Shown: in pieces, positions 6,168 through 61,806 of the stretch | Layout: each line of letters opens with the position of its first letter | Numbering within the stretch: the first letter of the stretch is position 1 | NCBI GenBank assembly: GCA_025054695.1 | Contig: JANWZI010000007.1 | Span: 333-64,332 of the forward strand | Reading direction: 5' to 3' | Origin: Myxococcota bacterium | GTDB taxonomy: Bacteria > Myxococcota_A > Polyangia > Polyangiales > JANWZI01 | Length of the DNA stretch: 64,000 bases | Translations under genes and position numbers: made by a program | Notes under the pieces: model-generated | Databases searched by the model: none | What the model saw: the letters and a program-made list of their open reading frames with translations, nothing else | Told to the model about the DNA's origin: nothing

Positions 6168-6193
6168 TCGGGACCACCGCATCAGCCGCACGC

Positions 6194-6279
6194 GGCCTCG
6201 GATTCGGGCTCGGACTCCGGCTCGTGCTCGGATTCGGAACTCCCCTCGGTCAGCTCAACCCATGTGACCGCCGCTGTCA
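6194..6279 (+). repeat. Hexamer array (9 units GGNCTC) plus conserved right module ending in CCGCCGCTGTCA
   Basis: Array at 6194-6247, then GGTCAGCTCAACCCATGTGACCGCCGCTGTCA. The terminal 12 nt are the reverse complement of TGACAGCGGCGG. Confidence 0.8.
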
Positions 6280-6824: not shown

Positions 6825-7226
6825 ATGCACGAACGATTCTCGTGGGGCCGTGCGTGCGTCGAGATCGAGGCGAGGCCAGGCTACCTCCACGTCGTCGAGA
6901 GCGGGCGCCTCGAATCGCTCGACGAGCTTCGCGCGTATCTGCGGACGCTCGAGGACTGCATCGCCCGCACCGGTCTGCGCCGTGCCATCATCGACGCGCG
7001 CGGCGAGGAACCGGGCGCCAGCCGTCCGGATCTCGTGCGCGAGATGTGGCGCTGGCTGGGCTCGCCGGCCGCGTTCCAAAAAGTCGCGTACGTGCTTCCC
7101 GATCCGCTCGCCGTCGCTCGGGTCAACATGACGGCTCTCGCGAAGCGTCGTCCGGTCCGCGCCTTCGACAACGTGCCGGAGGCCGCCGCCTGGCTTCTGC
7201 GCACCACGCTCCTTCCCACCGCCTGA
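6825..7226 (+). CDS. Hypothetical protein, possibly SpoIIAA/STAS-like
   Basis: 133-aa high-GC3 ORF. Only weak resemblance to small STAS-like proteins. Its TGA stop abuts a hexamer array. Confidence 0.55.
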   Translation: MHERFSWGRACVEIEARPGYLHVVESGRLESLDELRAYLRTLEDCIARTGLRRAIIDARGEEPGASRPDLVREMWRWLGSPAAFQKVAYVLPDPLAVARVNMTALAKRRPVRAFDNVPEAAAWLLRTTLLPTA

Positions 7227-7313
7227 TACGCGGTCGGGCCGGGACTCGGGCTCGGCCCCAGACTCGCGCTCAGGCTTGGTCTCGGACTCTGTCTCGGACT
7301 CGATTTCGGACTC
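7224..7313 (+). repeat. Hexamer array (12 units GGACTC family) starting at the stop codon of the upstream gene
   Basis: TGATACGCGGTCGGGCCGG followed by GGACTC GGGCTC GGCCCC AGACTC ... at 7242-7313. Confidence 0.8.
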
Positions 7314-7353
7314 GCTCGTGCGTTCGAAGGCGCGTGACCCGACTCACGGGCCC

Positions 7354-10143
7354 TCAGTCCGCCGCGTCTTGGATGAACCCGCGTGCGATGTGCGGAGGAG
7401 CGGGATGGGGACCCGGAAGCGGCCGGATCGCGACGGCCGTCACCTTGAATTCCGGGCACCCCGTGAGCGGATCCCTCCCGGGTCCCGTCAGCACGTTCGT
7501 CCGCAGCTCCGGGAAGTGGAACGCCAGGAACAACTGCCCGGGCGCGACCCGACGCGACCAGCGTGCCCAGACCTGCACGCGCCCCTGCTCGCTCTCGACC
7601 TCGCAGCGCGCGCCGTCGGCGATCCCGAGCCGCGCGCCGTCGTCGGGATGCAGCTCGAGCATGTCGGTGCCCTGCAGCGCGAGGTTCGGCGTCCGGCGCG
7701 TCTGGGTGCCCGCGTTGTAGTGCGCGAGCTGCCGCCCGGTGACGAGAAGGAACGGATACCGCTCCGAAGTCTGCTGGCGCGAGGGCGTCCATTGCGCGCA
7801 GTGCAGCGCCGCGCGCCCCGAGGGGGTGTCGAATCGCTCCTCGTACAGGATGGGCGTTCCCGGATGCTCCGCGTCGAAGACCGGCCACTGCAGTCCCTGG
7901 GTCCCCAGCCGCGCGTGGGAGACGCCGCGCAGCTCCGGCGTGAGCGCCGCGATTTCATCCATGATGTCCGCCGCGTCGCGATGCGGCAGCGGACGACCCA
8001 GGCGCGCGGCGAGCTCGAGCAGCACGTCGATCTCCTCGCGCACGGCGCCCGGAGGCTCGACGACGCGCCGCACGAGCTGGATCCGCCGCTCGGCGTTGGT
8101 GAACGTGCCGGTTTTCTCGAGGAAACTGGCCCCGGGCAGCACCACGTGCGCGAACTGCGCCGTGCGGCACTCGAACAGGTCGTGCACGACGAGCAGCTCG
8201 AGCGCGCGAAGGGCCTGTTCGACCTTGTCGACCTCCGGCTCGCTCTGCGCGATGTCGTAGCCCTGCACGTACAGGGCGCGCAGCCGACCGTCGCGCGCCG
8301 CCTCGAGCATTTTGGGTAGGGTCATGCCCGGCTCCTCGGGGAGCTTCACGCCCCAGCGCGCCTCGAACGGCGCTCGCGTCGCCGGGTCGGCGAGCGGCCG
8401 ATACATCGTCAGATACGTGGGCAACGCGCCGACGTCGCTCGAGCCCTGCACGTTGTTCTGACCGCGCAGCGGATGCACCCCGCCGCCGCGCCGGCCCACG
8501 TTGCCCGTCAGCAGCGCGAGGTTGGCCAGACACCGCACCCCGTCGACGCCCTGTGCCTGCTCGGTCACGCCGAGCCCGTACGCGATGAGCGCGGGCCGAT
8601 GGCCGCCGTACAGGTGCGCCGCACGCTCGATGTCCGCGGCCGGCACGCCCGTGATCGCAGCGGCGCGCTGCGGCGTCCACGACTCCAAGTGCGCCGCGAG
8701 CGACTCGAATCCGTCCACGCGCGCGGTCAAGAACGCCCGGTCGACCAGCCCGTCGCGCACCAGCACGTGCGCGAGCGCGTTGTACAGGGCGACGTTGGTA
8801 CCCGGCCGAAGCTGGAGGAACACGTCCGCCAGGCGCACCAGCTCGATCCGCCGCGGGTCGGCGACGACGAGCCTGGCGCCGCGCAGCACCGCCTGCTTGA
8901 TGCGGGCGCCGAGCACCGGATGGCCTTCGGTCGGGTTGGCGCCCGTCACGAAGAGGACCGCGGCCTCGTCGATGTCCGAAAAGCTCCCCGTGCTCCCCGA
9001 GCGCCCGAACGAGCGGATGAAGCCCAACGAAGTCGGCGAGTGGCAGACGCGCGAGCAGTTGTCGACGTGGTTAGTGCCGACGACCGCACGCGCGATCTTC
9101 ATCACGAGGTAGTTCTCCTCGTTCGTGCAGCGGCTGCTCGAGACGAAGCCAATGGCACCCGGTCCGTACCGCGCCCGGATCTCGATCAGGCGCTCGGCCA
9201 CGAACGACAGCGCCTGCTCCCAGCTCGCCTCGCCCAGGGTTCCGTCCGCGCGGCGCAGCAGCGGCGCGCGCAGTCGCGCCTCGGAGAACGCGTACCGGAA
9301 GGCGAACCGGCCCTTGAGGCACGCGTGCCCGAGGTTGCTCGGCCCGTCCGGCGCCGGGTGCATCGCGACGACGGCTCCGTCCCGCACGACCGCGTCGAAC
9401 CCGCAGCCGACGCCGCAATAGGCGCACGTCGTCCGCACGACGCGATCGACGGGGGCCCCCTTGCCCAGGCCTCGGTCCTCGATGGCGCCCGTCGGACAGC
9501 TCGCCGCGCACGCGCCGCACGAGACGCACGCGCTGGCCTCGAACCCCACGCCCGGACCGGCCGCGATGACCTCGTTCCAGCCGCGCCCCGCATACGTGAG
9601 GGCGAACGTCCCCTGCACCTCGTCGCACGCGCGAACGCACCGCCCGCACAGGATGCAGCGCTCCAAATCGAGCGCGAGGTAGGGATGGCGCTCGTCGCGT
9701 CTCGCCGCTCGTCGCGGTCCGTCGAAGCGCGAGCCGTGCAGCCCGAAGTGACGCGCGACGGCGTCGAGCTCGTCGGCATTGTAATCTGGATTGCAGTTTG
9801 CGTCGCCGGCCGCCGCAGCCCGCTCGGGCGGCCGCACCTCCGAGAGCACGAGCTCGACGACCGTGCGCGCGACGCGGCGCGCGACCGGGTCGTCGGTCCG
9901 CACGACCAATCCCGGCTGCGCGGGTGTCGTGCACGCCGCGACGGGCCCGCGCGCCCCCTTCACGCCCACCAGGCAAACGCGACAGCTGCCGACGGCCGAC
10001 AGGTTCGGCTGCCAGCACAGCGTCGGAACGTACACGCCCGCGCGCCGCGCCACCTCGAGGAGGCTTTCGCCCGGCCGCGCCCGAACCGTCTTGCCATCGA
10101 GCTCGATGTCGAACGTGGGTGTCTTGCCGTTCGTCGGGCTCAT
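7354..10143 (-). CDS. fdhA: NAD-dependent formate dehydrogenase alpha subunit (molybdopterin, Cys-type)
   Basis: Internal ATG ([17 protein letters not shown]) of track ORF 7354..11937. N-terminal 2Fe-2S region, 4Fe-4S motifs [11 protein letters not shown] and [12 protein letters not shown], Mo-bisPGD domain with active site [14 protein letters not shown] overlap with the upstream gene. Confidence 0.92.
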
Positions 10144-12009: not shown

Positions 12010-12228
12010 GAGTCCGAGGCGGAGCCCGAGTCCGAGTCCGAGTCCGAGTCGGAGTCCGAGTCGGAGTCCGAGTCCGAGTCCGAGCCCGAGGCCGAGTCCG
12101 AGTCCGAGTCCGAGCCCGAGTCCGAGTCCGAGTCCGAGTCGGAGTCCGAGTCCGAGTCCGAGTCCGAGTCCGAGCCCGAGTCCGAGTCCGAGTCCGGGCC
12201 CGAGCCCGAGTCCGACCCGATGCCGTCA
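12010..12228 (-). repeat. Largest hexamer array (35 units; plus strand GAGTCC/GAGCCC/GAGGCC/GAGTCG)
   Basis: Units counted at 12010-12219, 26 of them containing GAGTC. On the minus strand the array follows the phoD stop directly (TGACGGCATCGGGTCGGACTCGG). Confidence 0.95.
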
Positions 12229-13710
12229 GGGTCCCGTCCGGCGGAGCCACGGCTCGCCGTGGCGCACCTCGAAGCGCGCCGCCACGCGCTCGCGACCCCC
12301 GTCGGGACGCTCGACGTCCTCGACGAACCGATGCTCCGCGAGCAGCCGCTCGGGCGTGATCTCGAGCCATAGCCATCCTCGGTGCTCGGCGTCGACGAAC
12401 TTCGTCTCCGGGCTGGCCGCGCGGACCATGGCTTCGAACGCGCGCGCCTCGGCGCCGAAGAGATTCGGCGAGCTGACGGCGGGTGTCATCAGCTCGACCG
12501 CAACCGAGCCGCGTCCGGTCGCCGGGTCGTACGTGCGGCGATCCAACGGCACGTCCTGCGCGAAGCTCTTGTGGCCATCGCCACACAGAAACACCACGCC
12601 CTCGATTCGCTCCGACGCAACGAGCTCGAGCAAGGCATCGCGCTCCACCGCCCACCCGTCCCACGCGTCGAGGTTCCAGAACTCCGGGTGCGGGGAGAAC
12701 TGGACCGCTCCCGCGACGAGCTTCCAGCGCGCCCGGGACGCGCGAAGTCCTTCGAAGAGCCAGCGGCGCTGGCCCTCCCCGAGCATCGAGCGGCCCGGCG
12801 CGCGCGCCTCGCGTTCGTCGGCCGGCGGACGGTCGCGCTGCAAGCGCGTGTCGAGCACGAACAGCTCGACCAGATCCCCGAATCGCAGCGAACGCCACAA
12901 CGGCTCGACCGATCCGAGCGGCATCCACTCCGCGTAGGCGCGCGTCGAGGCGCGCAGGCGCTCGGCCCACGGTCCTTCGGTGGCCTCGTCGTGCCACGGC
13001 GAGCCGCCGGGCCAGGCGTCGTTGGCGTGCTCGTGATCGTCCCACGTCGCGACCAGCGGGTGCATGCCGAGCAGCGCCACCAGGTCGGGGTCGAGCCGGT
13101 AGTGGGCGTGCCGGCGGCGGTAATCGTCGAGCGAGCGGCATTCGTGCGGCGGATCGTAGGCGCGCAGCGAGCCGTAGAACCCGTCGGCCACCTCGTAGAT
13201 GAAGTCGCCCAGGTGCAGCACGGCGTCCAGATTGGTAACCTGAGATACATTTCGATAGACGTGGAAGAACCCGTGCGCGTAGCTCGCGCACGACAGCACC
13301 GCGAGCCGAACGGACGGCACCTCGCCCTCCCCCGCCGTGCGCGTCCGCCCGACGGCCGAGCGCTCGCCCCGAACCGTCTCGAACGCGTAGTACAGCGTGC
13401 GGCCCGGGGGCAGCCCATCGACTTCGGCGCGCACCGTGTGACCCGCCGACTCGAACGCGACCAGCTCGCGACTCGCCACCACGTCGCGCAACGCCTCGTC
13501 GGTCGCAACGAGCAGCCGCAGCGGCTCGTCCCCCACCGCCTCGGCCAGATGCGTCCAGAAGACCACTGCATCCGCTCGCGGATCGCCCGTCGCGACTCCG
13601 CGCCGAAAACGGCCCCACGTCGGTGAGCGACCGTCCGCCCCGCACGCTCCGAGCCACGTTCCGGCCATCGCGCCGACCACCCCGCGCAACAGCTCCCTGC
13701 GCAACACCAT
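12226..13710 (-). CDS. phoD: Alkaline phosphatase D family protein (PhoD)
   Basis: Tat-like N-terminus (RRELLRG). PhoD metallophosphatase motifs [21 protein letters not shown]. Confidence 0.88.
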
Positions 13711-17567: not shown

Positions 17568-18176
17568 TCAGCGTCGTTGCAGCCACCGCACGCCCGCACC
17601 GGCCAGCACCCAGCCGTGGGGAGCTCCGGGATCGCGTCCCCCGGCGTGAACCACCAGCGCACCCTCCAGCTCCACGAAGACGGCCCAGCGCGGCGTCAGG
17701 AGCCACGACGATCCCGCCGCCAGCGCCATGCACGACGTGTGCATCAGGCCGTGCGAGGGATCGCCGACCAGATTGGCGCCGAAGTGTTCCATCCAGCTTT
17801 GCCGCGACGCATCGTGGATGTGCCACACGCGCAGGCCGACGTGCGGCCACCAGCCGTCGAGGCGTGATTGCCAGCGTGGTCCCGCCGCCAGACGGATCCA
17901 GCCACGCGGGTGGGTTCCGAAGCTCACGCCGACACCCCCCACGACGTCGATGGCCCAGCTCGGATGCAGCTCGATGCCGAGCCGCACGGCGCCTTCGGCT
18001 CCGACGCTCGACGTCGAGACGGGCACGACGAACGCCGTCGAGAGTGCCGGCTCCAGGTGAACGGAGTCCGCTTCGGCCGTCGCCGACCGAGTGAGGGTCG
18101 CCGCGCATCCCGCAACGGCCGCGAGCGTCGCCACCAACGGGCGAAGGCGGTCCGCGACGCCCACCGGCGCTCCCAC
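17568..18176 (-). CDS. Hypothetical lipoprotein / beta-rich envelope protein
   Basis: C-terminal part of track ORF 17568..18476. GTG starts at 18176 or 18164 give lipobox LAAVAGC. Gly/Trp-rich sequence of unknown family. Confidence 0.5.
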
Positions 18177-18267
18177 GGTCGAAGCATGCGGGCTCGTTCG
18201 GGTCGCGTCCACGTCTCCGTCGGCAAGCCGTATGCAGCGCTCACCGCGAGGGTTGGGTTGCTCGATC

Positions 18268-18330
18268 GCGGCTCCGACTCGCCCTTGGGATCCGTCCCGG
18301 AATCGGGCTCGGACTCCGATCGGGCTCGCG
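18268..18330. repeat. Degenerate hexamer array
   Basis: CGGCTC CGACTC ... GGAATC GGGCTC GGACTC CGATCG GGCTCG. Same gap as the composite element at 18377. Confidence 0.5.
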
Positions 18331-18376
18331 CGCGATCCACGGCGCAAGCCCGCGCCGTCACCGATCCCGTGCCGAT

Positions 18377-18513
18377 TGACAGCGCCGGCCAGTGGGTTGA
18401 TCGCGCTTTCTACTCGGGCTCGGGGTCGGTCTCGGCCTCGGACGCGGGCACGGACCCGGTCTCGGTCTCGCAACACTCCCCGGCCACGTCAAGCAACGTC
18501 ACCGCCGCTATCA
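18377..18513 (+). repeat. Composite MITE-like element copy A: left module, 9-unit hexamer array, right module, 12-nt inverted termini
   Basis: TGACAGCGCCGGCCAGTGGGTTGATCGCGCTTTCTACTCGG, array at 18416-18469, then CGCAACACTCCCCGGCCACGTCAAGCAACGTCACCGCCGCTATCA. Mobility unproven. Confidence 0.8.
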
Positions 18514-18954
18514 GGGGATCGAACCGTCGCCGTCCGGCGGGCCGCCGTCCGCGGGCGGAGGGATCGCATCGTCGGTGCCTGCGGCGTCGCGCGGGGCGTC
18601 CTCGCGCGTCTCGCCGTCTCCACGCATCGCCGCGTCCGGAGAGCTCGCCTCGCCCGTGTCGGTCCCCGCGTCGGCTGCACGCGCGTCGTCCGTCGCAGCG
18701 TCACGCATCGTGCCGTCGGTGCCCGCGTCGGAAGCTCCGGCATCCGTCCCGCTCGTCTCGCAGCGCGACGCGCAGACGCCGCGCGCGGTCAGCGCGACGC
18801 TCGCCTTGCAGCAAACCAGACCGTCGGAGCAATCCGACTGCAATTCGCACGAATCACCCTCGGCGCCCGTGCAGGCCATGGCGGTCGTCACAAAGACCAC
18901 CGCCCAGCCATGCCTGCAACCGCGCAACACGCGTCCTGCACGCACGCTCGCCAC
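18511..18954 (-). CDS. Hypothetical Cys-cluster lipoprotein with acidic Asp/Ala/Thr/Gly-rich tail
   Basis: Signal/lipobox [10 protein letters not shown]. Cys cluster [16 protein letters not shown]. Its stop codon is the TGA inside the terminal motif of the adjacent repeat element. Confidence 0.5.
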
Positions 18955-19199
18955 CTCGACCGGCGCGCACGCTAACCTGCGCCGACGGCGAGGTCCAGCT
19001 CGCCGGAAAATCGACGGGAGCGGTCCGATCGGACGATCGGATCACCCGACGCGGTGAACAATCGAGCGGAACGCTCAGGCACGGCGGGGGCCATGCCGAA
19101 CGTCGGATCGCACTGCACCCGCCAGTCGAGAAGTTTCGACGGTGTACCCGATCCCGCGCCGGGCCCCCCATTCCTCGAAGAGGACCAAGACGTCGACCC

Positions 19200-19444
19200 A
19201 TTCGGAATCGCCGTGAAAGTGTTGCGAGCCCGAGACCGATCCCGAGCCTGAACCTGAGCCCGAGCCCGAGTCCGAGTCCGAGACCGAGTCCGTGCCCGAG
19301 CCCGAATCCGAGTCCGAGCCCGAGTCCGTGCCCGAGCCCGAATCCGAGTCCGAGCCCGAGTCCGTGCCCGAGCCCGAATCCGAGTCCGAGTCCGAGCCCG
19401 AGACCGAGTGGAATCGCGATCAACCCACGTGGCCTGCGCGGTGA
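19200..19444 (-). repeat. Composite element copy E (reverse orientation) with a 30-unit array including three 36-bp higher-order repeats
   Basis: Array at 19226-19405. Minus-strand left module TCACCGCGCAGGCCACGTGGGTTGATCGCGATTCCACTCGG. The other end shares CGCAACACT and then diverges. Confidence 0.75.
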
Positions 19445-19539
19445 GACGGCACCGGCCAGAGGCGCCGACGGCCCACCCCTGGGATGCGGCTGGGTGCTCC
19501 CCTCGCCACTGTCCGACACGCCGCGCAACTTCGTCGAGG

Positions 19540-20139
19540 TCACGGCGGCGCGCGAAGCACCATCACGATGTGTCCGCTCGGGCCGGGCCGCGGATCGGCC
19601 TGTCCGGGATCTCGAGTCAACGCGACCGTGAGTGCGACGGCCCCACCGGCCACGAGCACGCCCACAGCAGCCCAGAACCACGGACTCGACAACAAACCGT
19701 GGGATGATGGCTCGGAGCTGACGGCGGCTGGCTGCTGTCGCAATCGGGCCTCGATGCGCTGCTCGCGCTCCAGCTCTCGTTCGAGCACGCGGACGCGTGC
19801 CTCGACCTCCGCGCGTACCGCACTGTCCGGCTCGGCCTCCAAGAAGCGTCGATACGCTTCGAGGGCCTCGCGGTCGTGGCGCAGCCGGTCGTGCGCGAGC
19901 CCGATGTTGTACAACAGTGCCGCCCGTCCGCTCAGCTCGTACGCGCGCTGGAATCGCTCGAGGGCGAGCTCGTAGCGTCCCGCCGCGTACGCGTCACGCC
20001 CCTCGACGAACGCGCGGCGAGCCTCCGCGTCCGCCTCTGACGGCACCCCGGAAGGCTCGGATTGAGCCGCACTGCGCGCGGGATTGCCGGCGAGCACGAG
20101 CCACGTGCCGATGCAGCCCACGACGACACGCATGCGCAC
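19540..20139 (-). CDS. TPR-like repeat protein with signal peptide and C-terminal TM anchor
   Basis: [18 protein letters not shown] and [16 protein letters not shown]-like helices, a coiled segment, and the TM helix [21 protein letters not shown]. Confidence 0.7.
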
Positions 20140-20154
20140 CCGGTCAGCATAACC

Positions 20155-20208
20155 GAGACCGAGACCGAGACCGAGTCCGAGTCCGAGTCCGAAACCGGGT
20201 GCGAGCCC
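20155..20208. repeat. Hexamer array (9 units GAGACC/GAGTCC)
   Basis: Direct reading, between a gene start (20139) and a gene stop (20233). Confidence 0.85.
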
Positions 20209-20232
20209 ACAGCCGCTCGGGCGCCGGCCGGC

Positions 20233-20673
20233 TCAGCCTGCGTGCCGTTCGACGAGGCGTCCGAGCCGCGGGACGGCCTGCTCGACGTTGCGCTTGGCCG
20301 TGCCGCGGAGCTTGTCGTAGGTGCCCCGAATGAGCCCGTTGGTCGTTCTCCGCGCCTTCTCGTCGGTGATGGCGAGCAGGGCGTCGGCGACGCGGCCCGC
20401 GTTGCGCTCGAAGTATCCCGCGATGGGCTCGGCGCGACCGACCGCTTCTTGATAGATGGGATCGAGCGCCGCGGCGAACTCCGGCAGCAGATCGCGCACG
20501 ACGTTGCGGATGAACCCCGGCTTGATGCCCTTGACCGCCGCGTACCCCGCTTTGATGGCGAGCCCGCTGATTCCCGTCTTGTCGCGCACTTCGTCGTCGA
20601 CGAGCTGCACGCACTCGTCGATCACGGTCTGCTTGCGTCGCTCGTCCGTGAGCAGCTCGGGCAGGCTCGGCAT
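20233..20673 (-). CDS. Conserved hypothetical protein
   Basis: Full 146-aa track ORF with high GC3 and no recognisable motif. Confidence 0.65.
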   Translation of the reverse strand: MPSLPELLTDERRKQTVIDECVQLVDDEVRDKTGISGLAIKAGYAAVKGIKPGFIRNVVRDLLPEFAAALDPIYQEAVGRAEPIAGYFERNAGRVADALLAITDEKARRTTNGLIRGTYDKLRGTAKRNVEQAVPRLGRLVERHAG

Positions 20674-27630: not shown

Positions 27631-29013
27631 ATGGACCGCGACGACCCGACGCCGCGGAGCGAGCCTCGCGACGAGCTGCAGGCCCTGTTCGAAGCGCTGC
27701 GCGCGCAGCCTCAAGCGCCTGCGACCCTCTGCGGCGGACAGCAACCGTTGCACACCGTCTACGGCGGCGCCCATCTGTTTCGCGCCGACGTGGCGGTACG
27801 CCTCGGCCGCCGCGCGCTCGAAGCGCTCGAGCGCTGGGCCCCGGACGCGCGCGCTTTCGCGCGGGCCATCGGCATGCGCGGCGCCGACGACCCCGCCGAC
27901 CCCTTGCCCGAACGCGTCCATGCCCGCGTCCGCGCCCGCCTCGAACGGTTGCCCGTCGAAGATCTGCGGGTCGACTTCGAGGACGGTTTCGGCGTGCGCT
28001 CCGACGCCGAAGAGGACGAGCACGCCGATCGCGTCGCGCAGCAGCTCGTCGAAGGCGCCCGGAACGGGACGCTTCCGCCGTTGGTGGGCATCCGCGTCCG
28101 GGCGCTGGACGAGACGAGCGCGGCCAGGGCGGTGCGAACGCTCGAGCGCGTCGTACGGCCCGTCGGCACCGCGCTCGGCACGCTGCCGTCCGGGTTCGTC
28201 GTCACGTTGCCCAAGGTGCGCTGCGCCGCGCAGCCCCGGACGCTCGCGCGCCTCCTCGACCGGATCGAGCGCAGCATCGGCCTGCCGCCGCGGACGATTC
28301 CCATCGAGCTGATGATCGAGCTTCCCCAGGCGCTTTTCGGACCGGACGGTCGCATCGTCGTGCGCGACCTGCTCGACGCCTGCGAGGGGCGTTGCCGCGG
28401 CCTTCACTTCGGCACCTACGACTACACCGCAGCGTGCGACGTGACGGCCGCGCACCAGGCGATGGACCATCCGCTGTGCGACTTCGCGCTCGCCGTGCTC
28501 AAGAACGCGCTCTCGGGCACCGGGGTCTGGCTCTCGGACGGCGCGACGACCGAGCTGCCGGTGCCGCCGGAGCCCGAGTCGGGCGACGAGCCCGATCGTG
28601 CACGTCGAAACGCGGCGAGCGTGCACGCGGCCTGGCGCCGGATGTATGCGAACGTCCAGCGCGCGCTCCGCATGGGCATCTACCAGGGCTGGGACCTTCA
28701 CCCGGCCCAGCTTCCGGTGCGTCACGCCGCGGTGCAGGCGTTCTTCCTCGAGGGCATCGATTCGCTGCTCGAACGGCTCCGCAACTTCGTCGATCGGGCG
28801 GCACGCGCGACCCGGACGGGCGCGCTGTTCGACGACGCCGCGACGGGCCAGGGGCTGCTCAACCACGTTCTGCGCGCGCTCCATTGCGGCGCCATCGACG
28901 TCGCGGATCTCCAGGCCGTCGGACTGGCACCCGACGAGATCGCCACGCGCTCCTTTTCGCGGATCGTGGCCGCACGGGCGATTTCCGAGGAAGCCGACCG
29001 ACCCCACCCCTGA
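27631..29013 (+). CDS. HpcH/HpaI aldolase - citrate lyase beta-like TIM-barrel protein (family not resolved)
   Basis: 460-aa ORF. LRVDFEDGFG, IELMIELPQA and HFGTYDY resemble the metal/substrate motifs of CitE/HpcH enzymes. Confidence 0.55.
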   Translation: MDRDDPTPRSEPRDELQALFEALRAQPQAPATLCGGQQPLHTVYGGAHLFRADVAVRLGRRALEALERWAPDARAFARAIGMRGADDPADPLPERVHARVRARLERLPVEDLRVDFEDGFGVRSDAEEDEHADRVAQQLVEGARNGTLPPLVGIRVRALDETSAARAVRTLERVVRPVGTALGTLPSGFVVTLPKVRCAAQPRTLARLLDRIERSIGLPPRTIPIELMIELPQALFGPDGRIVVRDLLDACEGRCRGLHFGTYDYTAACDVTAAHQAMDHPLCDFALAVLKNALSGTGVWLSDGATTELPVPPEPESGDEPDRARRNAASVHAAWRRMYANVQRALRMGIYQGWDLHPAQLPVRHAAVQAFFLEGIDSLLERLRNFVDRAARATRTGALFDDAATGQGLLNHVLRALHCGAIDVADLQAVGLAPDEIATRSFSRIVAARAISEEADRPHP

Positions 29014-29015
29014 GC

Positions 29016-29141
29016 GAGCCGGAGTCCGAGTCCGAGACAGAGCCCGAGTCCGAGACAGATGCGGAGCCCGAGTCGGAGTCGGAGTCCGAGACCAAGTCCA
29101 AGCCCGAGCCCGCACCCGAGTCCATCGCCGCGCCCGAGCCT
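29016..29141. repeat. Hexamer array (about 21 units GAGTCC/GAGACA/GAGCCC) starting 3 nt after the upstream stop codon
   Basis: TGAGCGAGCCGGAGTCCGAGTCCGAGACAGAGCCC... It lies upstream of dnaK. Confidence 0.85.
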
Positions 29142-29320: not shown

Positions 29321-31213
29321 ATGGGAAAGATCGTCGGAATCGACCTCGGGACCACGAACTCGGTGGTCGCCATCATGGAGGGCAAGGAACCCAAGGTCAT
29401 CGTCAACGAGGAAGGCGACCGGCTCACGCCCTCCGTCGTGGCCTGGGACGAGCAAGGCGAGATCCTCGTCGGCCAGATCGCCAAGCGCCAGGCGATCACC
29501 AACCCGGAGGGCACCATTTACTCGGCCAAGCGCTTCATCGGCCGGCGCTACGAGGAGGTCGGCGAGGAAATCAAGCGCGTCCCGTACAAGGTCGTCCGGC
29601 GCGCCAACGGCGACGCAGGCTTCGTGGTCCGGGGCAAGGAGCTCGCTCCGCCCGAAGTGAGCGCGCACGTGCTGCGCAAGCTGAAGAAGGCGGCGGAGGC
29701 CTACCTCGGCGAGCCGGTCACCGAGGCCGTCATCACGGTTCCCGCTTACTTCAACGACAGCCAGCGTCAGGCGACCAAGGACGCGGGGCGAATCGCGGGA
29801 CTCGAGGTCAAGCGCATCGTCAACGAGCCGACCGCCGCCGCGCTCGCGTATGGCCTCGACAAGAAGAAGGACGAGACGATCGCCGTCTACGACTTCGGGG
29901 GTGGGACCTTCGACATCTCGATCCTCGAAGTGGGCGAGGGCGTCGTCGAGGTCATCAGCACCAACGGGGACACGCACCTCGGCGGTGACGACGTCGATCA
30001 CCGCATCATGGACTACCTGGTGGCCGAATTCCGCAAGGACACCGGCATCGACGTCAGCAAGGACAAGATGGTCATCCAGCGGCTCAAGGACGCCGCCGAG
30101 AAGGCCAAGATCGAGCTGTCGAGCAAGCTCGAGACGACCATCAACCTGCCGTTCCTGACGGCCGACGCCAGTGGACCCAAGCACATGAACATCCGCCTGA
30201 CGCGGGCGCGGCTCGAATCGATGATCGAGGATCTGGTCGAGCGCACCTTCGAGGCATGCAAGCGCGCTCTGGCCGATGCGAAGAAGTCGCCCTCGGACAT
30301 CGACGAGGTGGTCCTCGTCGGCGGCAGCACGCGCATCCCGCTGGTGCAGGAGCGGGTGCGCAAGTTCTTCGGCAAGGAGCCGCACAAGGGCGTCAACCCC
30401 GATGAGGTCGTCGCGGTGGGCGCCGCGGTCCAGGCCGCCGTGCTCGCCGGCGACGTCACGAACATGGTCCTGCTCGACGTCACGCCGCTCTCGCTGGGCG
30501 TCGAGACGCTCGGCGGCGTGATGACGGTGCTCATCCCGCGCAACACGACCATCCCCACGCGGCGCGAGGAGGTCTTTTCGACCGCCGAGGACAACCAGAC
30601 CAAAGTCGAGATCCACGTGCTGCAGGGCGAGCGCGCCGAGGCACGCCACAATCGGACGTTGGGACGCTTCTACCTCGAGGGGCTGCTGCCGGCGCCTCGC
30701 GGGGTCCCCAAGATCCGCGTCACGTTCGACATCGACGCCAACGGCATCCTGTCGGTCACGGCCAAGGACGAAGCGACCGGCAAGGACAAGAACGTGCGCA
30801 TCGAGGCCAAGAGCGGGCTCAGTCAGGACGAAATCGAGCGCATGGTCAAAGAGGCGCAGGAGCACGAATCCGAAGACCGACGCCGACGCCAGGAGGTCGA
30901 GGAGCGCAACCGCGCCGACCAGCTCTGCTATTCGGTCGAGAAAACGCTCGGCGAGGTCAAGGACAAGCTTCCCGCCGACAAGGTCTCCAGCGTCGAGTCC
31001 CGCATCCGTGCGCTGCGCGAGGCGATCGACAAGCAGGACGCGGAGGCCATTCGCTCCGGAACCCAGGCGCTCGAGCGCGAGTTGAGCGAGCTGGCGCGCC
31101 TCGCGTACGAATCGGCGAGCTCCTCGAGTGGGTCGGGCAATGGCAAGCGTCCCGCCGACGGTGGCAAGAAGAAGGACGACGTCATCGACGCCGAGTTCGA
31201 CGAGGCCAACTGA
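29321..31213 (+). CDS. dnaK: Molecular chaperone DnaK
   Basis: Internal ATG ([17 protein letters not shown]) of track ORF 29198..31213. Hsp70 signatures throughout. C-terminal ...[12 protein letters not shown]. Confidence 0.97.
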
Positions 31214-32150: not shown

Positions 32151-32375
32151 GTCACGGCGGCCGGGCCAGCGTGGTTGATCGCGCCTTCTACTCGGTCTCG
32201 GACTCGGACTCGGCCTCGGCCTCGGGCTCAGGCTCGGGCTCTGGCTCGGACTCGGACTCTGGCTCGGTCCCGGCCTCGGACTCGGTCTCGGTCTCGGTCT
32301 CGGACTCGGTCTCGATCGCGGACTCGGACTCGCAAAACCCCTCGGCCACGTCAACCTACCTGACCGGCGCTGTCA
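32151..32375 (+). repeat. Composite MITE-like element copy B: left module, 23-unit array, right module, terminal CCGGCGCTGTCA
   Basis: GTCACGGCGGCCGGGCCAGCGTGGTTGATCGCGCCTTCTACTCGG, array at 32194-32331, then CGCAAAACCCCTCGGCCACGTCAACCTACCTGACCGGCGCTGTCA. Its terminal 12 nt are the exact reverse complement of the copy A left terminus. Confidence 0.85.
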
Positions 32376-49227: not shown

Positions 49228-49390
49228 GTGACAGCGCCAACGGGTTGGTCGGTGGTGCGGACCGAAGCTGCGACTCCGAGCCCTGGACCGACCCCGAGTC
49301 CAAGTCCGAGCCCGAGCCCGACTCCGAGTCCGTTTCCGATTCCGAGCCCGAGCGCGTGCCCGAGTCCGAGACCGAGGCCGAGTCCAAGTC
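49228..49390. repeat. Terminal-motif variant TGACAGCGCCAA plus a 20-unit hexamer array
   Basis: TGACAGCGCCAACGGGTTGGTCGG at 49228, array at 49271-49390. An inverted TGTCA..TGACA pair lies at 49193-49233. Confidence 0.75.
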
Positions 49391-49417
49391 CCCGATGGAG
49401 GCATCGATGCGCGACGC

Positions 49418-57622: not shown

Positions 57623-57783
57623 GCCACGTCAACCCGCCCCCGAGCTCCCAGCGGCGGTCACGTTGCGTGACGTGGCCGAGGCCTGCTGCGAGGCCGAGTC
57701 CGAGACGGAGGCCGAGACCAAGGCCCAGGCCGAGACCAAGACCGAGTAGAAGGCGCGATCAACCAGACTGGCCGGCACTGTCA
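57623..57783 (-). repeat. Composite MITE-like element copy D (reverse orientation)
   Basis: Minus strand reads TGACAGTGCCGGCCAGTCTGGTTGATCGCGCCTTCTACTCGG, then a 12-unit array (57678-57749), then CGCAGCAGGCCTCGGCCACGTCACGCAACGTGACCGCCGCT. An extra inverted GCCACGTCA lies at 57623. Confidence 0.8.
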
Positions 57784-58338
57784 CTTCTCGCTCACGCGGC
57801 GCATCGGCACGGGGCGTCCCGCGGCGCGCAACGCAGCGGCGATCGCCTCGCCCAAATCGGCCCGATGCCCGTACCCCGCGGGCAGCTCGTAGACGCCTCG
57901 TTCACCCGTAGGCTGCCGGAACCGAATCCGTACGAATGCATGGACGACGTCGTTCGAGGGCACGACGTATTCGACGGCTTCGATGCGCTCGACGGGAATC
58001 CACGTCCGACGCGGCGTCGCATCGCCCGCGAAGTATTGATGCACGAACCCACTGTCGCGCACCTCGACGAAGAGCCGTCGGCGCGTGCGACGCTCCCGGA
58101 TCCAATCCTTGGCGAACCCCGCGCACGCCACCACCACGGCGACGCCGACGAGCGCCGTGCATCCCAATCCGGCCTTCTCGGTCCACGTCAGCTCGTACCA
58201 CGCGGCGGGCTCGACCTCCGGTAACCCTCGCGGTCGCACGTCGAATCCCCGGTGGAGCACGAGCGCCACCCCGACGACGACGAGCGCGGCAAGTGCCGCC
58301 GCCACGGCCAACGCGATCCCCACCACGAACGCCACCAT
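57781..58338 (-). CDS. Hypothetical membrane protein (2 TM plus cytosolic domain)
   Basis: Internal ATG (MVAFVVGIALAVAAALAALVVVGVAL) of track ORF 57781..58800. Its stop codon is the TGA of a repeat-element terminal motif. Confidence 0.55.
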   Translation of the reverse strand: MVAFVVGIALAVAAALAALVVVGVALVLHRGFDVRPRGLPEVEPAAWYELTWTEKAGLGCTALVGVAVVVACAGFAKDWIRERRTRRRLFVEVRDSGFVHQYFAGDATPRRTWIPVERIEAVEYVVPSNDVVHAFVRIRFRQPTGERGVYELPAGYGHRADLGEAIAAALRAAGRPVPMRRVSEK

Positions 58339-58439
58339 CGGCCAAGAGGGTGGCGTCTCCAGCACGCGGAGATGAACGCGGTCGCGGGCGGCCGATTGCC
58401 CCGTGCCCGTCTCGGCCCTGTCCTGCACCCGGTCGTCGA

Positions 58440-58865
58440 TCACGACGAGCGCGTCCGACGCAAGCGCACGCGCGTGCGACGATCGTAGCATGCGCGCGCT
58501 CGCTGGATGGCGGGACGGTACCGCTCCGCCCAAGCGGCCAGCCCCATGATCGGCTCGAGGAGCGTGCGCCCGAGCGGAGTCAGCGCGTACTGAACGCGCG
58601 GAGGCGCCGTGGGCAGCACGGTCCGCTTGACGATCCCGTCGCGCTCGAGTCCCCGCAGCGTCGCGGCGAGCATGCGCTGCGAAATCCCCTCGATCGACCG
58701 ACGCAACGCGCTGAACCGAAGTGGGCCGTCGCGCAGCAACGCCACGACGAGCACGCTCCACTTGTCGCCGATGCGCTCGAGCACGTCGCGCACGGGACAT
58801 GCGTCGCCCTGATCGACAGCGTTCTCACGACGGCCTGCGTCTCGACGGGTCGCGGCACCGCGCAC
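58440..58865 (-). CDS. HxlR family transcriptional regulator
   Basis: CPVRDVLERIGDKWSVLVVALLRDGPLRFSALRRSIEGISQRMLAATLRGLERDGIV winged-helix core. GTG start at 58865. Confidence 0.85.
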   Translation of the reverse strand: MRGAATRRDAGRRENAVDQGDACPVRDVLERIGDKWSVLVVALLRDGPLRFSALRRSIEGISQRMLAATLRGLERDGIVKRTVLPTAPPRVQYALTPLGRTLLEPIMGLAAWAERYRPAIQRARACYDRRTRVRLRRTRSS

Positions 58866-59154: not shown

Positions 59155-61806
59155 TTAGCGCAGCACGACGAGGTCCCGCGCATCGCCGGGGCGTCCGGCG
59201 CTGCCTGCGGAACCCGGTGAGTAGCCCCCGCGACCCGCGCGACCTCCGAGGCCGACGGCATCCACCTCGAGCCCCGCGCGCAACGACGTGAAGTACGCGT
59301 CCGAAACGACGCCGACGATCACGACGCCGTAGCTGCCTCCTCCGCAGCCGCCGCCGCCCCCTCCACCGGCTCCTCCGCGGCCGCCATCGCCGCCGCGCCC
59401 GCCGTTGCGCGCGCACCAGAACGTCGAGGTGCCCCCGCGTCCACCCACGCCCCCGCGTCCTCCATCGGCGCCGATACCTCCATCTCCGCCGTCGCCCCCG
59501 CTGGCCGTCACCACGCGCACGTCCTCGAGACCCGGGCCGCGGTCCCGACCCGACGCGAGGCGGATCGCAATCCCGACGCTGGCGCCACCGCCGCCGCCTC
59601 CACGCGCGCCCGGCGCACCGCATCCGCCGGATCCGCCCCCCCCACCGCTGCCACCCGACCGATCGGCGCAGCCCGCCTCGGTGCCCGCGATGACGTCGTA
59701 TCCCGCACCGGCCGTACCTCCACCACCGCCGGAACCGTCGGTGCCGTCGGCCCCATCACCGCCGTGGCCTGCGGACACTCGTCCCGACGACGGATCGAAA
59801 CGCTCCGATACGGCGCATCCCGCGCCCCCCGATCCGTCCATTCCGTCGGCGCCACGACCTCCATGCCCCCCCTCACGCGGCAGCGTCGGGTTGTCGTCGC
59901 AGAAATGGCAGACGCCGCGGTTCGTGGGCGAATTGTAAGTCAGCTCACCCGCCGCGCCGGGCGACGGGCCACGACCCGGTTGCGCGGGCGGATTGGACAC
60001 CGCCACGCGCCGCGCGGCATCGAGATCGCACACGCCGCCGACCGTGAAATCGGTGCATCCGGCGTTCCCGCAGGGAGCGCCGACGCGACATCCGGTCTCC
60101 GCGCAGGCCGCATCTCCTCCTCGCCCCCCGCCCACGTCGCGCCCGCGACACGCGTGCGTCCCCCCCGACCCACCGGGCAGCCGCGTACACTCCGCCCCCG
60201 AGGCGGGCGCGCGACCCTCGCCGCCGGGCCGGCCGTCGAGGTCGGCGAGCGAGCGCAGCCCCCACTCCGACAGTCGCTCGCTCGACGAGGCTCCTCGAGC
60301 GCCCGCTGCGCCGCGGCCCGCGACCACTTCCAGGGCGGCCAGAACCACCGACGGCCCGCACGCATCGAGGTAGACGGCGGTGCTCCCCTCGCCGGGTCCC
60401 GTCGCGTCCGAGCCGCGTACGACGAAGCCCTCGATGCGCGTAGGCGTCTCGACGCCGCGACAGCGCAAGACCGGCTCGCCGGGCCTGCCGCCGCCCTCGA
60501 GCACGACCGGGTACAGCGCGAGGTCGCGATCGCGGAAGTCGGACCGGTAGCCGCCGTACACGTCGACGCCCCCGACCACCGAGAACCCCGCGTAGCGCCC
60601 CGTCGCCACGAGCACGTCCTTGCCCTGGGCGCGCGCCCGTTCGACGGCGCGCTCGATGGTGCGCATGGGGCGCGCGAGCGTGCCCGGCTGACCGTCGTTG
60701 CCGGTCGGGGCGACGTAGACGTAGTCGTCCGCGTCGTCGACGACTCCGTCGCAGTCCGCGTCGCCTCCCAGCACCGGAGGCGGGCCGGTGCCGTCCCACC
60801 GCTCGCATTCGCACCCCGTGGCCGCGACGCCGTCGACGTCGACGAAACCCTCGAGGCACTCGGTCGCGCACCGGACCTCGCCGCCCTCGACGACGCAACG
60901 CGCGAGCATGTTCGGACCCGGCGGTGCGCACGGTCGGCCGCATTGTCCGCAGTGCGTCGGGCCCACATACCGCCCCGCCTCGTCGACGAAGTCCTCGTCG
61001 ACGTCGCCGTCGCAATCGTCGTCCTCGCCATTGCATGCTTCGCCCAGCACGGGCTCGCATGGACCGAATCCGTCCGGGCCGCAGGTGCGCGTCCCGGCAC
61101 AACGTCGTCCGTCCTCGCGCTCGACGGTGCACGCGACCACGAGCCCCACGTCGTCGGGGCCGCACTCGCAATCGCCGCCCACGGGCAAACAGCCCGTGCG
61201 CTCAAGTCCCGTTTCCGGATCGGACGTCGGCGCGCACACCGTGCCGGGGGCGCAGTCCGACGTCGCCTCGTCGCACGCGGGCACGCACCGGCCTGCATCG
61301 AGGGCACGCGCGCAGAACGCCTGCGGATCGCGCACCCGACAGGCCTCGTCCGAGGCGCACGGCAGACAGAGCGAGTCGACGAGGGGCAGACAGGCTCCGT
61401 CGGTCGAGGGATGCGTGCCCGGCGGACAGGCGACGAGCACGCAGCGCGGCCCCTCGTCGGTGTCGACTCGACACTCGGTCCGTTCGGCCGTCGGAAACGC
61501 GGCCGCGCACGACAGACCGCAGGAGCCGCAGTGCTCGGCCGACGCGTATCGACCCGCTGCGTCGAGGAAGTCTTCGTCGATTCGGCCGTCGCAGTCGTCG
61601 TCGAGGTAGTTGCAGCGCTCTTCGGTGGCGCACGGATGGCTCGCATAGCAGCCGACGAGGCCGACGCCTCCGACGCAGACGAGCACCGACCCGATGCCGC
61701 GGACGCCGCGTGCCGCGCTCACGCGCCGTGACGGCCCACCGCGCGCGTCGTGCGCGCGGGCCCACGCACCCGCGGTGCGATGCGACTCAGCGCACGATGA
61801 TTTCAT
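59155..61806 (-). CDS. Large secreted Cys-rich / right-handed beta-helix (DUF1565-like) / Gly-rich repeat protein
   Basis: Signal/lipobox IGSVLVCVGGVGLVGC. Two MopE-type motifs (CNYLDDDCDGRIDEDF, CNGEDDDCDGDVDEDF), each followed by HCGxCG. YVAPTGNDGQPGTLARPMRTIERAV beta-helix start. C-terminal GGxGG tracts. Start at ATG 61806, or a downstream GTG. Confidence 0.75.
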   Translation of the reverse strand: MKSSCAESHRTAGAWARAHDARGGPSRRVSAARGVRGIGSVLVCVGGVGLVGCYASHPCATEERCNYLDDDCDGRIDEDFLDAAGRYASAEHCGSCGLSCAAAFPTAERTECRVDTDEGPRCVLVACPPGTHPSTDGACLPLVDSLCLPCASDEACRVRDPQAFCARALDAGRCVPACDEATSDCAPGTVCAPTSDPETGLERTGCLPVGGDCECGPDDVGLVVACTVEREDGRRCAGTRTCGPDGFGPCEPVLGEACNGEDDDCDGDVDEDFVDEAGRYVGPTHCGQCGRPCAPPGPNMLARCVVEGGEVRCATECLEGFVDVDGVAATGCECERWDGTGPPPVLGGDADCDGVVDDADDYVYVAPTGNDGQPGTLARPMRTIERAVERARAQGKDVLVATGRYAGFSVVGGVDVYGGYRSDFRDRDLALYPVVLEGGGRPGEPVLRCRGVETPTRIEGFVVRGSDATGPGEGSTAVYLDACGPSVVLAALEVVAGRGAAGARGASSSERLSEWGLRSLADLDGRPGGEGRAPASGAECTRLPGGSGGTHACRGRDVGGGRGGDAACAETGCRVGAPCGNAGCTDFTVGGVCDLDAARRVAVSNPPAQPGRGPSPGAAGELTYNSPTNRGVCHFCDDNPTLPREGGHGGRGADGMDGSGGAGCAVSERFDPSSGRVSAGHGGDGADGTDGSGGGGGTAGAGYDVIAGTEAGCADRSGGSGGGGGSGGCGAPGARGGGGGGASVGIAIRLASGRDRGPGLEDVRVVTASGGDGGDGGIGADGGRGGVGGRGGTSTFWCARNGGRGGDGGRGGAGGGGGGGCGGGSYGVVIVGVVSDAYFTSLRAGLEVDAVGLGGRAGRGGYSPGSAGSAGRPGDARDLVVLR

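Follow-up and report, generated by a model that had tools for sequence, protein, structure and literature searches.

BOX elements of Streptococcus pneumoniae are organised as boxA-boxB(n)-boxC, with a 45-nt boxB present in 0-8 copies; they resemble MITEs (miniature inverted-repeat transposable elements), lack a transposase of their own, and are predicted to form a stable stem-loop as RNA. Other MITEs derive from insertion sequences (ISs) with TG...CA ends, which under ISfinder conventions include the IS3, IS481 and IS21 families, and the mycobacterial interspersed repetitive units (MIRUs), 40-100 nt long and operon-oriented, contain small open reading frames (ORFs) coupled to the flanking genes. 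BrickBuilt, a MITE of Porphyromonas gingivalis, has a 23-nt core unit, 19 copies in a complete genome and promoter activity (Klein et al., 2015; PMC4596501). The present study concerns a family of short intergenic repeats that enclose a (CCGAGN)n hexamer array and occur in a 64-kb stretch of a Myxococcota bacterium (GCA_025054695.1, contig JANWZI010000007.1, positions 333-64,332). This whole stretch is hereafter called the window, position 1 being its first nucleotide; together with 7.2 kb to its left and 3.5 kb to its right, ~75 kb of sequence was covered. The nearest named relatives of the organism are Sandaracinus and Sandaracinaceae (~60-65% protein identity), the best match of all reaching 75%.

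We read the module-bearing copies as remnants of a small, non-autonomous element with inverted-repeat ends, broadly a MITE, built in the modular fashion of BOX and BrickBuilt, and consider the chances of this reading to be about even. It is also the most economical reading, and what sets this element apart from those two is its 6-nt core unit. Among the features that define elements of the BOX/BrickBuilt type, outer modules with inverted ends, variable tandem units, in-register junctions and an intergenic location were all found here, whereas the core unit is smaller than a minisatellite unit.

The likeness to BOX is one of architecture, not of compared sequence: both are three-part modular intergenic repeats in which one outer module is partly an inverted copy of the other and the middle module varies in tandem number. 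They differ in that boxB measures 45 nt and occurs 0-8 times, against a 6-nt unit in 7-31 copies here, and in that the stable stem-loop predicted for BOX contrasts with folding that is no better than that of shuffled sequences; as the phyla differ, sequence similarity is not expected. With MITEs derived from TG...CA insertion sequences, the element shares TG/CA ends, imperfect inverted ends of ~25 nt, small size, absence of an ORF and candidate flanking duplications. Unlike them, it has no cognate IS or transposase in the annotated window and flanks, and the duplication is present at two of the three testable copies, with unequal lengths. MIRUs are similar in placing tandem units in operon intergenic regions, in having ends that overlap flanking stop codons and in their strain-variable copy number, but the units here are of 6 nt, the arrays lie in both orientations and the end modules are inverted.

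BrickBuilt combines a leader, a tandem-repeat core and a tail with small inverted-repeat ends; it is always intergenic, varies in repeat number between copies, exists in complete and partial forms, is confined to one lineage and has no linked transposase identified (PMC4596501). All these features have their counterpart here. The points of difference are a 23-nt unit there against the 6-nt CCGAGN here, without sequence similarity; 19 copies genome-wide there against part of one contig covered here; and promoter activity there against no promoter-like site found here (PMC4596501). A further difference is that here the same unit also forms many arrays without end modules. Our search of the literature on myxobacterial hexamer arrays or MITEs found nothing specific.

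Modules, ends and copies of the element

Three complete copies (A, 18377-18513; B, 32152-32375; C, 57647-57783) and four to five partial or degenerate ones were recognised in the window, dispersed at 6.2, 7.3, 18.4, 19.3, 32.2 and 57.7 kb; both orientations occur, and the neighbouring genes are unrelated. Family membership of arrays was judged by an all-vs-all comparison of 70-nt flanks, by flank-restricted profile searches and by gapped alignments scored against an empirical null. Both modules are clear at A, B and C, and a single one is clear at D (3′), E (5′) and A' (3′). The evidence for modules is weak at G (p = 0.003) and marginal at F; a clear module accompanies 5 of the 15 arrays, or 7-8 if weak remnants are counted.

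The evidence for a family with defined ends begins with a 12-nt terminal motif. The pattern TGAYAGYGSCRR has six matches in the window, at 6268-6279(-), 18377-18388(+), 18502-18513(-), 32364-32375(-), 49229-49240(+) and 57772-57783(-), against a mean of 0.28 in shuffled sequences, none of 100 shuffles reaching six. The initial annotation, made from the sequence alone, had placed six such motifs at array edges; all were found, five exactly where it put them and the sixth displaced by one base (given as 49228-49239). The distance from motif to array edge is 24-43 nt in every case, the arrays being of the (CCGAGN)n type. The core of the left module, GGTTGATCGCGCYTTCTACTCGG, is likewise conserved at the three sites reported earlier, with exact matches at 18395-18417(+), 32173-32195(+) and 57742-57764(-) and zero expected even when three mismatches are allowed. 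Profile searches recovered both modules where they had been described, the 'right' one (5′, array-proximal) at 18513-18471, 32375-32333, 57649-57688 and 6279-6239, and the 'left' one (3′) at 18417-18377, 32195-32151, 57742-57783 and 19404-19439.

Over ~25 nt, one module is an imperfect inverted copy of the other (consensus TGACAGCGCCGGYCAGKTRGGTTGA); the terminal inverted repeats proposed earlier are therefore confirmed and extend to about twice the length first given. Aligned with the 3′ end of copy A in reverse complement, the 5′ end of copy B agrees at 22 of 25 positions (score 35, shuffle maximum 22), and with each module profile the other module is picked up on the opposite strand (E = 3.5e-4 and 0.016-0.18), a cross-match with an empirical p of 0.0003-0.006 in gapped alignment against 3000 random 65-mers of the window. 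The inverted ends start with TG and finish with CA, and are of the type TGACAGCGSCGG. Within a single copy the arms are imperfect (10/12 in copy A), and an inverted-repeat finder left the terminal repeats undetected because mismatches interrupt its 6-nt seeds.

The junctions between modules and arrays are in register in copies A-D, with [TC]TG|CGAG at one end of the array and CCGAG|T[AG]GAA at the other, and three of these four arrays finish on the same unit, GAC-CGAG. The number of units varies from copy to copy (about 10, 24, 10 and 31 in A, B, C and D). The shared register suggests that what was copied was a unit already containing the array. At the 5′ boundary, similarity sets in sharply at (C)TGA in A, B, E and F, with none upstream, and five copies (A, A', B, C and D) have their 3′ end at GT[CG]A. 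The claim of multiple dispersed copies with common termini holds for the copies in the window and for this 5′ boundary, but not fully for the 3′ boundary, which exists in two flavours with similarity continuing beyond it. At four termini (18511-18513, 57781-57783 and both ends of candidate copy G), the element's own terminal TGA doubles as the annotated stop of the gene that runs into it.

The modules lie outside all genes in both the codon-model map and the NCBI calls, and the codon model calls nothing within the elements (133-250 bp) except a 25-codon GAG/NCC artefact. The small size and lack of coding capacity noted at the outset are thereby upheld for these intergenic sequences, in which a candidate small ORF is broken or startless in B and D.

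Copy A (minus strand, 137 bp, complete) was identified by the motif, the core and the profile searches. It consists of a 5′ inverted end and module (18513-18471), an array of ~10 units (18470-18413) and a 3′ module with its inverted end (18417-18377); the gene 18511-18945(-) stops at the TGA of this copy (18513-18511). Directly downstream lies a degenerate partial copy, A' (18240-18325, minus strand), made up of a mini-array (18325-18296) and a 3′-module variant (~18290-18240) ending CGCGGTGAG. A' aligns to the 3′ module of B when region A is compared with region B by MAFFT, and its 3′-module score of 16 has an empirical p of 0.0017. In copy B (minus strand, 224 bp, complete), which is flanked by the direct repeat CTCCGGC, the 5′ end and module cover 32375-32333, ~24 units make up the array (32332-32190), and the 3′ module (32195-32152) has the variant terminus CCGCCGTGA. 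Copy C (plus strand) is complete except for the first 3 nt (TGA) of its 5′ end; its 5′ module (57647-57688), array of ~10 units (57688-57746) and 3′ module with inverted end (57742-57783) follow in order, and gene 57781-58491(-) uses the TCA at 57781-57783 as its stop codon (TGA).

The remaining copies are less complete. Copy D (19190-19444, start approximate, plus strand) is partial, its 3′ module being detected with E = 0.0013 and 1.8e-11 in two profile searches; an array of ~31 units with a 36-nt higher-order period (19224-19409) precedes this module (19404-19444, ending GCGCGGTGA), and of the 5′ module the junction GTGTTG|CGAG alone remains. Copy E (6193-6279, minus strand; E = 1.6e-4 and 1.7e-11 in two profile searches) retains the 5′ end and module (6279-6239) and an array of ~7 units (6237-6193), its 3′ module being undetectable by profile and gapped alignment. 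Copy G (7224-7356, minus strand, 133 bp; p = 0.003) is a candidate degenerate copy that starts with TGAGGGCCCGTGAGTCGGGTCACGCGCCTTCGAAC, contains an array at 7315-7245 and finishes with CCGACCGCGTATCA; its 5′ side resembles an inverted 3′ module. It exactly fills the gap between the convergent genes 7354-10143(-) and 6825-7226(+), its TGAs serving as both stops. Copy F (49229-49391, plus strand) is marginal (p = 0.03-0.06) and comprises the 12-nt motif TGACAGCGCCAA at 49229-49240 and an array at 49271-49391, starting 30 nt later; the remainder of both modules was undetectable there.

Some 700 nt separate copies A and D, which are inverted relative to each other and whose 5′ ends face a small lipoprotein-like gene (18511-18945, minus strand), in a composite-transposon-like arrangement.

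Evidence bearing on transposition

If the copies are relics of a mobile element, the ancestral unit would have comprised ~90 bp of unique sequence with imperfect inverted TG...CA ends of ~25 nt (consensus TGACAGCGCCGGYCAGKTRGGTTGA) and would have carried a short (CCGAGN)n run, of which GGCCGAGG in one module and CCGAGTAG in the other may be the remaining seeds. A transposase that recognised the ends in trans would then have spread the whole unit, array included, to several intergenic sites. Insertions at the 3′ end of a gene, or slightly inside it, would have survived, since either end of the element would bring a TGA stop codon. A local change of the internal array length after dispersal, through slippage or unequal recombination, is supported. 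The unique modules have since diverged to ~80-90% identity, as we read the flank alignments, and the family looks old and probably inactive. A true transposon relic would represent a myxobacterial mobile element with its own expandable simple-sequence core, and would be one means for hexamer arrays to spread through intergenic DNA. Such elements would also reshape gene ends, four annotated genes here terminating on the element's own TGA.

Direct repeats at two copies are consistent with insertion. A 7-nt repeat, CTCCGGC, flanks copy B (p ~0.013 for a shared 7-mer in 14-nt flanks), and a 5-nt repeat, GGCGG, flanks candidate copy G with the same geometry: in both cases the 5′ repeat stands 2 nt outside the TGA and the 3′ repeat abuts the terminus.

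The copies themselves are not products of assembly. The window corresponds to contig JAVQYH010000005.1 of GCA_033577305.1, an uncultured Myxococcota metagenome-assembled genome (MAG), window positions being those of that contig minus 39796; the two sequences are 99.7-99.96% identical, not byte-identical, and all element copies are also found in that NCBI record. Contigs of the Logan assembly of run SRR15826901 match the window at 99.98-100% identity, and copy A is matched at 100% in contig L139 of this independent assembly. The presence of the copies in the Logan assembly and the NCBI record excludes an assembly artefact. Contig L139 breaks off within array D.

A considerable set of observations weighs against transposition. 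No flanking duplication was seen at A, the duplications at B and G are unequal in length (7 and 5 nt), and the 5′ end of C is truncated. Only three copies are complete, and they have diverged by 10-25%. The 3′ ends come in two flavours, CTGTCA in A and C versus CSGTGA in B, D and A', and similarity does not stop at the supposed termini: ATCGGCACGGG lies directly after A and 19 nt after C, and CCGGCCA..GCGCCGAC lies beyond the ends of B and D. No transposase or integrase Pfam family occurs among the annotated genes of the window and its 10.7 kb of flanks (~75 kb), in agreement with the earlier statement that the window contains no transposase. Occupancy is identical at every site in the near-identical NCBI record (99.7-99.96%) and in the Logan contigs. 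Searches elsewhere gave a similar picture: the left-module core had four chance matches among species-representative genomes (source genome not included), in unrelated phyla and without arrays; this core had zero matches in JGI metagenome contigs (source genome not included); and neither module was found at any of the 120 metagenome array loci listed (690 kb; best E = 0.38). Finally, nine of the 15 arrays of the window, and two more beyond its right end, have no module or shared flank at an empirical threshold of p < 0.01.

A plasmid collection contained nothing similar to the element and no similar IS ends. The next relatives share 60-75% protein identity and are not syntenic with the window; because synteny is lacking, a comparison with empty sites in relatives failed. 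Other repeat types were considered and rejected. A and B are not a duplicated gene-plus-leader segment, the proteins downstream of the two copies being without similarity. Repetitive extragenic palindromic (REP) sequences and bacterial interspersed mosaic elements (BIMEs) do not fit either, as the ends stand 90-200 nt apart, with no compact GC-rich palindrome of 20-40 nt and no GTAG head, and a version with a linked REP-associated tyrosine transposase (RAYT, tnpA-REP) was set aside as no Y1 transposase family appears in the gene lists.

Hexamer arrays inside and outside the element

Tandem Repeats Finder detected 15 arrays with a 6-nt unit in the window (G+C = 71%), starting at positions 6193, 7245, 12010, 13758, 15354, 18413, 19224, 20152, 22159, 26474, 29014, 32190, 44338, 49271 and 57688. 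Oriented alike, they all read (CCGAGN)n, equivalent to (GAGNCC)n, the variable base being T 60, C 30, A 21 and G 9 times. Not one array base lies within a gene, by either the codon-usage gene map or the NCBI gene calls. The arrays sum to 1565 nt, or 13% of the non-coding DNA of the window, and occupy 14 of the 38 intergenic gaps of at least 40 nt (~1/3). Every copy and array adjoins at least one gene 3′ end, and none of the six divergent (promoter-only) gaps holds an array. Several arrays have higher-order periods of 12-36 nt (e.g. 30 and 36 nt), the array of copy D being composed of five 36-nt blocks with 89% identity.

The longest array, 12010-12215, has 34 units. Two 6-nt indels within it are, apart from those in phoD, the sole length differences between the window and the NCBI record in 64 kb, and are direct evidence that long arrays change faster than their surroundings; they consist of the insertions CTGAGA and GAGACC and are accompanied by about six substitutions. 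The adjacent phoD gene carries five substitutions and two compensating 1-nt indels at 12502-12634, 300-400 nt from the array. Beyond these two places the sequences differ at ~0.05%. The differences around the array may reflect a recombination tract or a strain mixture, and comparison of assemblies leaves some room for repeat misassembly as their source.

The initial annotation regarded the arrays as the core of the element, which is true for a minority only, since nine of the 15 have no module; no module or shared flank accompanies the two arrays outside the window either. A comparison of all flanks revealed no second family of shared flanks among the window arrays. The hexamer arrays are not confined to the element, and most of those in the region either have no connection with it or have decayed too far for one to be recognised.

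The same unit is widespread in other organisms. A scan of metagenome contigs for seven consecutive CCGAGN units returned at least 120 loci, such arrays being common in high-GC environmental contigs, and a crude test on the high-GC loci among the matches listed placed 47 of 53 internal arrays outside a long GC3-rich ORF. The occurrence of arrays without modules in these contigs means that this array type exists independently of the modules in other organisms. A comparison of flanks among the metagenome loci was uninformative, its matches being mostly array-like sequence. Many of these loci (L016-L135) lie at contig ends, and some contigs carry 2-4 arrays; a few are eukaryotic, one of them (L094) terminating in CCCTAA telomere repeats. 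No CCGAGN array was found in four relatives of the source organism (87 kb in total). On these comparisons, the modules are confined to this lineage, and array proliferation is patchy across the family. In one relative (~61% protein identity), an intergenic array of another hexamer, (TGCCCG)9, lies between two genes (L136, 12433-12485), and the intergenic DNA of the family may hold hexamer arrays of other units.

The proposal of a non-autonomous transposable element made in the initial annotation therefore stands as far as a short intergenic family of repeats with inverted ends is concerned, but is weakened by the arrays being mostly module-less and by the same array type occurring elsewhere without modules. 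In its main rival, the arrays come first: (CCGAGN)n minisatellites would arise and expand alone by slippage from CCGAG seeds, and the modules would be the flanks of one array, duplicated by recombination or segmental duplication with no transposition. Nine window arrays and two beyond the window without module or shared flank, the share of non-coding DNA (13%) and of intergenic gaps (14/38) taken up by arrays, and the fact that module-free arrays of this unit abound in other metagenome contigs of high GC, where 47 of 53 lie outside long ORFs, all agree with this explanation, as do the similarity running past the termini in A/C and B/D, the position of A and D 1 kb apart and inverted, and the failure to find a transposase in the annotated window and flanks. 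It leaves unexplained, however, the inverted relation of the flanks over ~25 nt, the sharp stop of similarity at (C)TGA in four copies in unrelated contexts, and the direct repeats flanking B and G. Moreover, the four relatives (87 kb) are array-free, so that array formation is not general in the high-GC intergenic DNA of the family. On balance, we regard this rival as unlikely.

A stronger form of the transposon reading would make the element ends the vehicle that seeded (CCGAGN)n arrays genome-wide. The mobile unit would deliver an expandable hexamer minisatellite to gene 3′ ends, the arrays would outlive their decaying modules, and module-less arrays would be old insertions, perhaps retained for a role at operon junctions in spacing, protein binding or RNA processing; we consider this doubtful, more so than an origin of the arrays by slippage. 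The abundance of hexamer arrays in this organism is a more unusual fact than the element, and the wider puzzle, maybe of more interest than the composite element, is that arrays fill ~1/3 of the gaps here and none in four related genomes (87 kb).

Transcription, folding, coding potential and surroundings

The position of the arrays raises the question of a function in the host. A cis-element punctuating operons, either an RNA or a protein-binding site, would have ends that close a long hairpin or bind a dimeric protein, the array acting as a spacer or multi-site platform at gene 3′ ends. All copies and arrays adjoin a gene 3′ end and none lies in the six divergent gaps, four termini overlap annotated stop codons, and the minimum-free-energy fold of copy A pairs both ends. 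The array at 20152-20205 separates two minus-strand genes: it begins 19 nt upstream of the TPR gene 19540-20133(-), counted from the annotated start codon at 20133, and ends 27 nt past the stop codon of 20233-20673(-). In all likelihood it is transcribed as part of a two-gene operon, with little room left for a separate promoter, and transcription of an array this close to a start codon would suit such a cis-element. Another array (29014-29123) begins right behind a gene, 2 nt after the TGA stop of 27631-29013(+), and ~200 nt upstream of dnaK (29321-31213).

The folding results argue against this function. Folds of A and C on either strand are no stabler than those of shuffled sequences (z = -1.95, +0.74, -0.67, +0.24), and the arms within one copy match worse than arms between copies, which is the opposite of what a maintained stem predicts. 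Copies also lie in both orientations relative to the flanking genes, no Rfam 15 family reaches its gathering score in the window, and no consensus promoter-like or terminator-like site was found in the elements. The absence of the ~15 arrays from six divergent gaps is itself not significant (about p = 0.1, by our own estimate). A host cis-element is accordingly improbable in our judgement. Structured RNA was rejected as a candidate on the Rfam and folding results, and a promoter or terminator because no consensus sites are present in the elements. Sub-threshold Rfam matches to animal and plant microRNA families on array D (19249-19401; best 26.9 bits versus a gathering score of 100) are repeat-driven noise.

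A coding explanation was also weighed, in which the unit would encode a small acidic peptide, M-A-E-x-C-C-(E-x)n, with a GTG start in GACGTGGCC and the conserved 3′-module TAG as its stop. One frame, GTG GCC ... TG[CT] TGC GAG ... GAG TAG, is indeed common to copies A, B and C, and a weak positive codon-model score was obtained at 57672-57749; GAG and NCC, however, are merely favoured codons, so that any array frame scores well. No ribosome-binding sequence precedes the GTG, D is startless in this frame, B has an in-frame TAG just upstream, the conservation of the modules is at the nucleotide level and continues beyond the stop codon, and the NCBI annotation has no gene there. Such a peptide is very improbable. 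Among all these explanations, the relic of a small inverted-repeat element is the one we favour for the module-bearing copies.

The surroundings of the window were inspected as well. Arrays and modules are both absent from the left extension (7.2 kb), and the right extension (3.5 kb) contains two further arrays, neither with modules. A 4-kb stretch within the left extension (L009, 16687-20777; ~2.5-6.6 kb left of window position 1), in which NCBI calls no gene, is free of both arrays and modules; long ORFs are present there, such as one of 823 codons at 17962-20433 on the minus strand of the locus. A protein search aimed at paralogues returned orthologues only, at ~60% identity. Near the right end of the window, two adjacent genes (59155-61806 and 61787-64000) encode large Cys-/Gly-rich proteins of 883 and 860 aa that have no Pfam domain; the pair is kept at ~55-62% identity in many Sandaracinaceae and Polyangia MAGs and in Sandaracinus amylolyticus.

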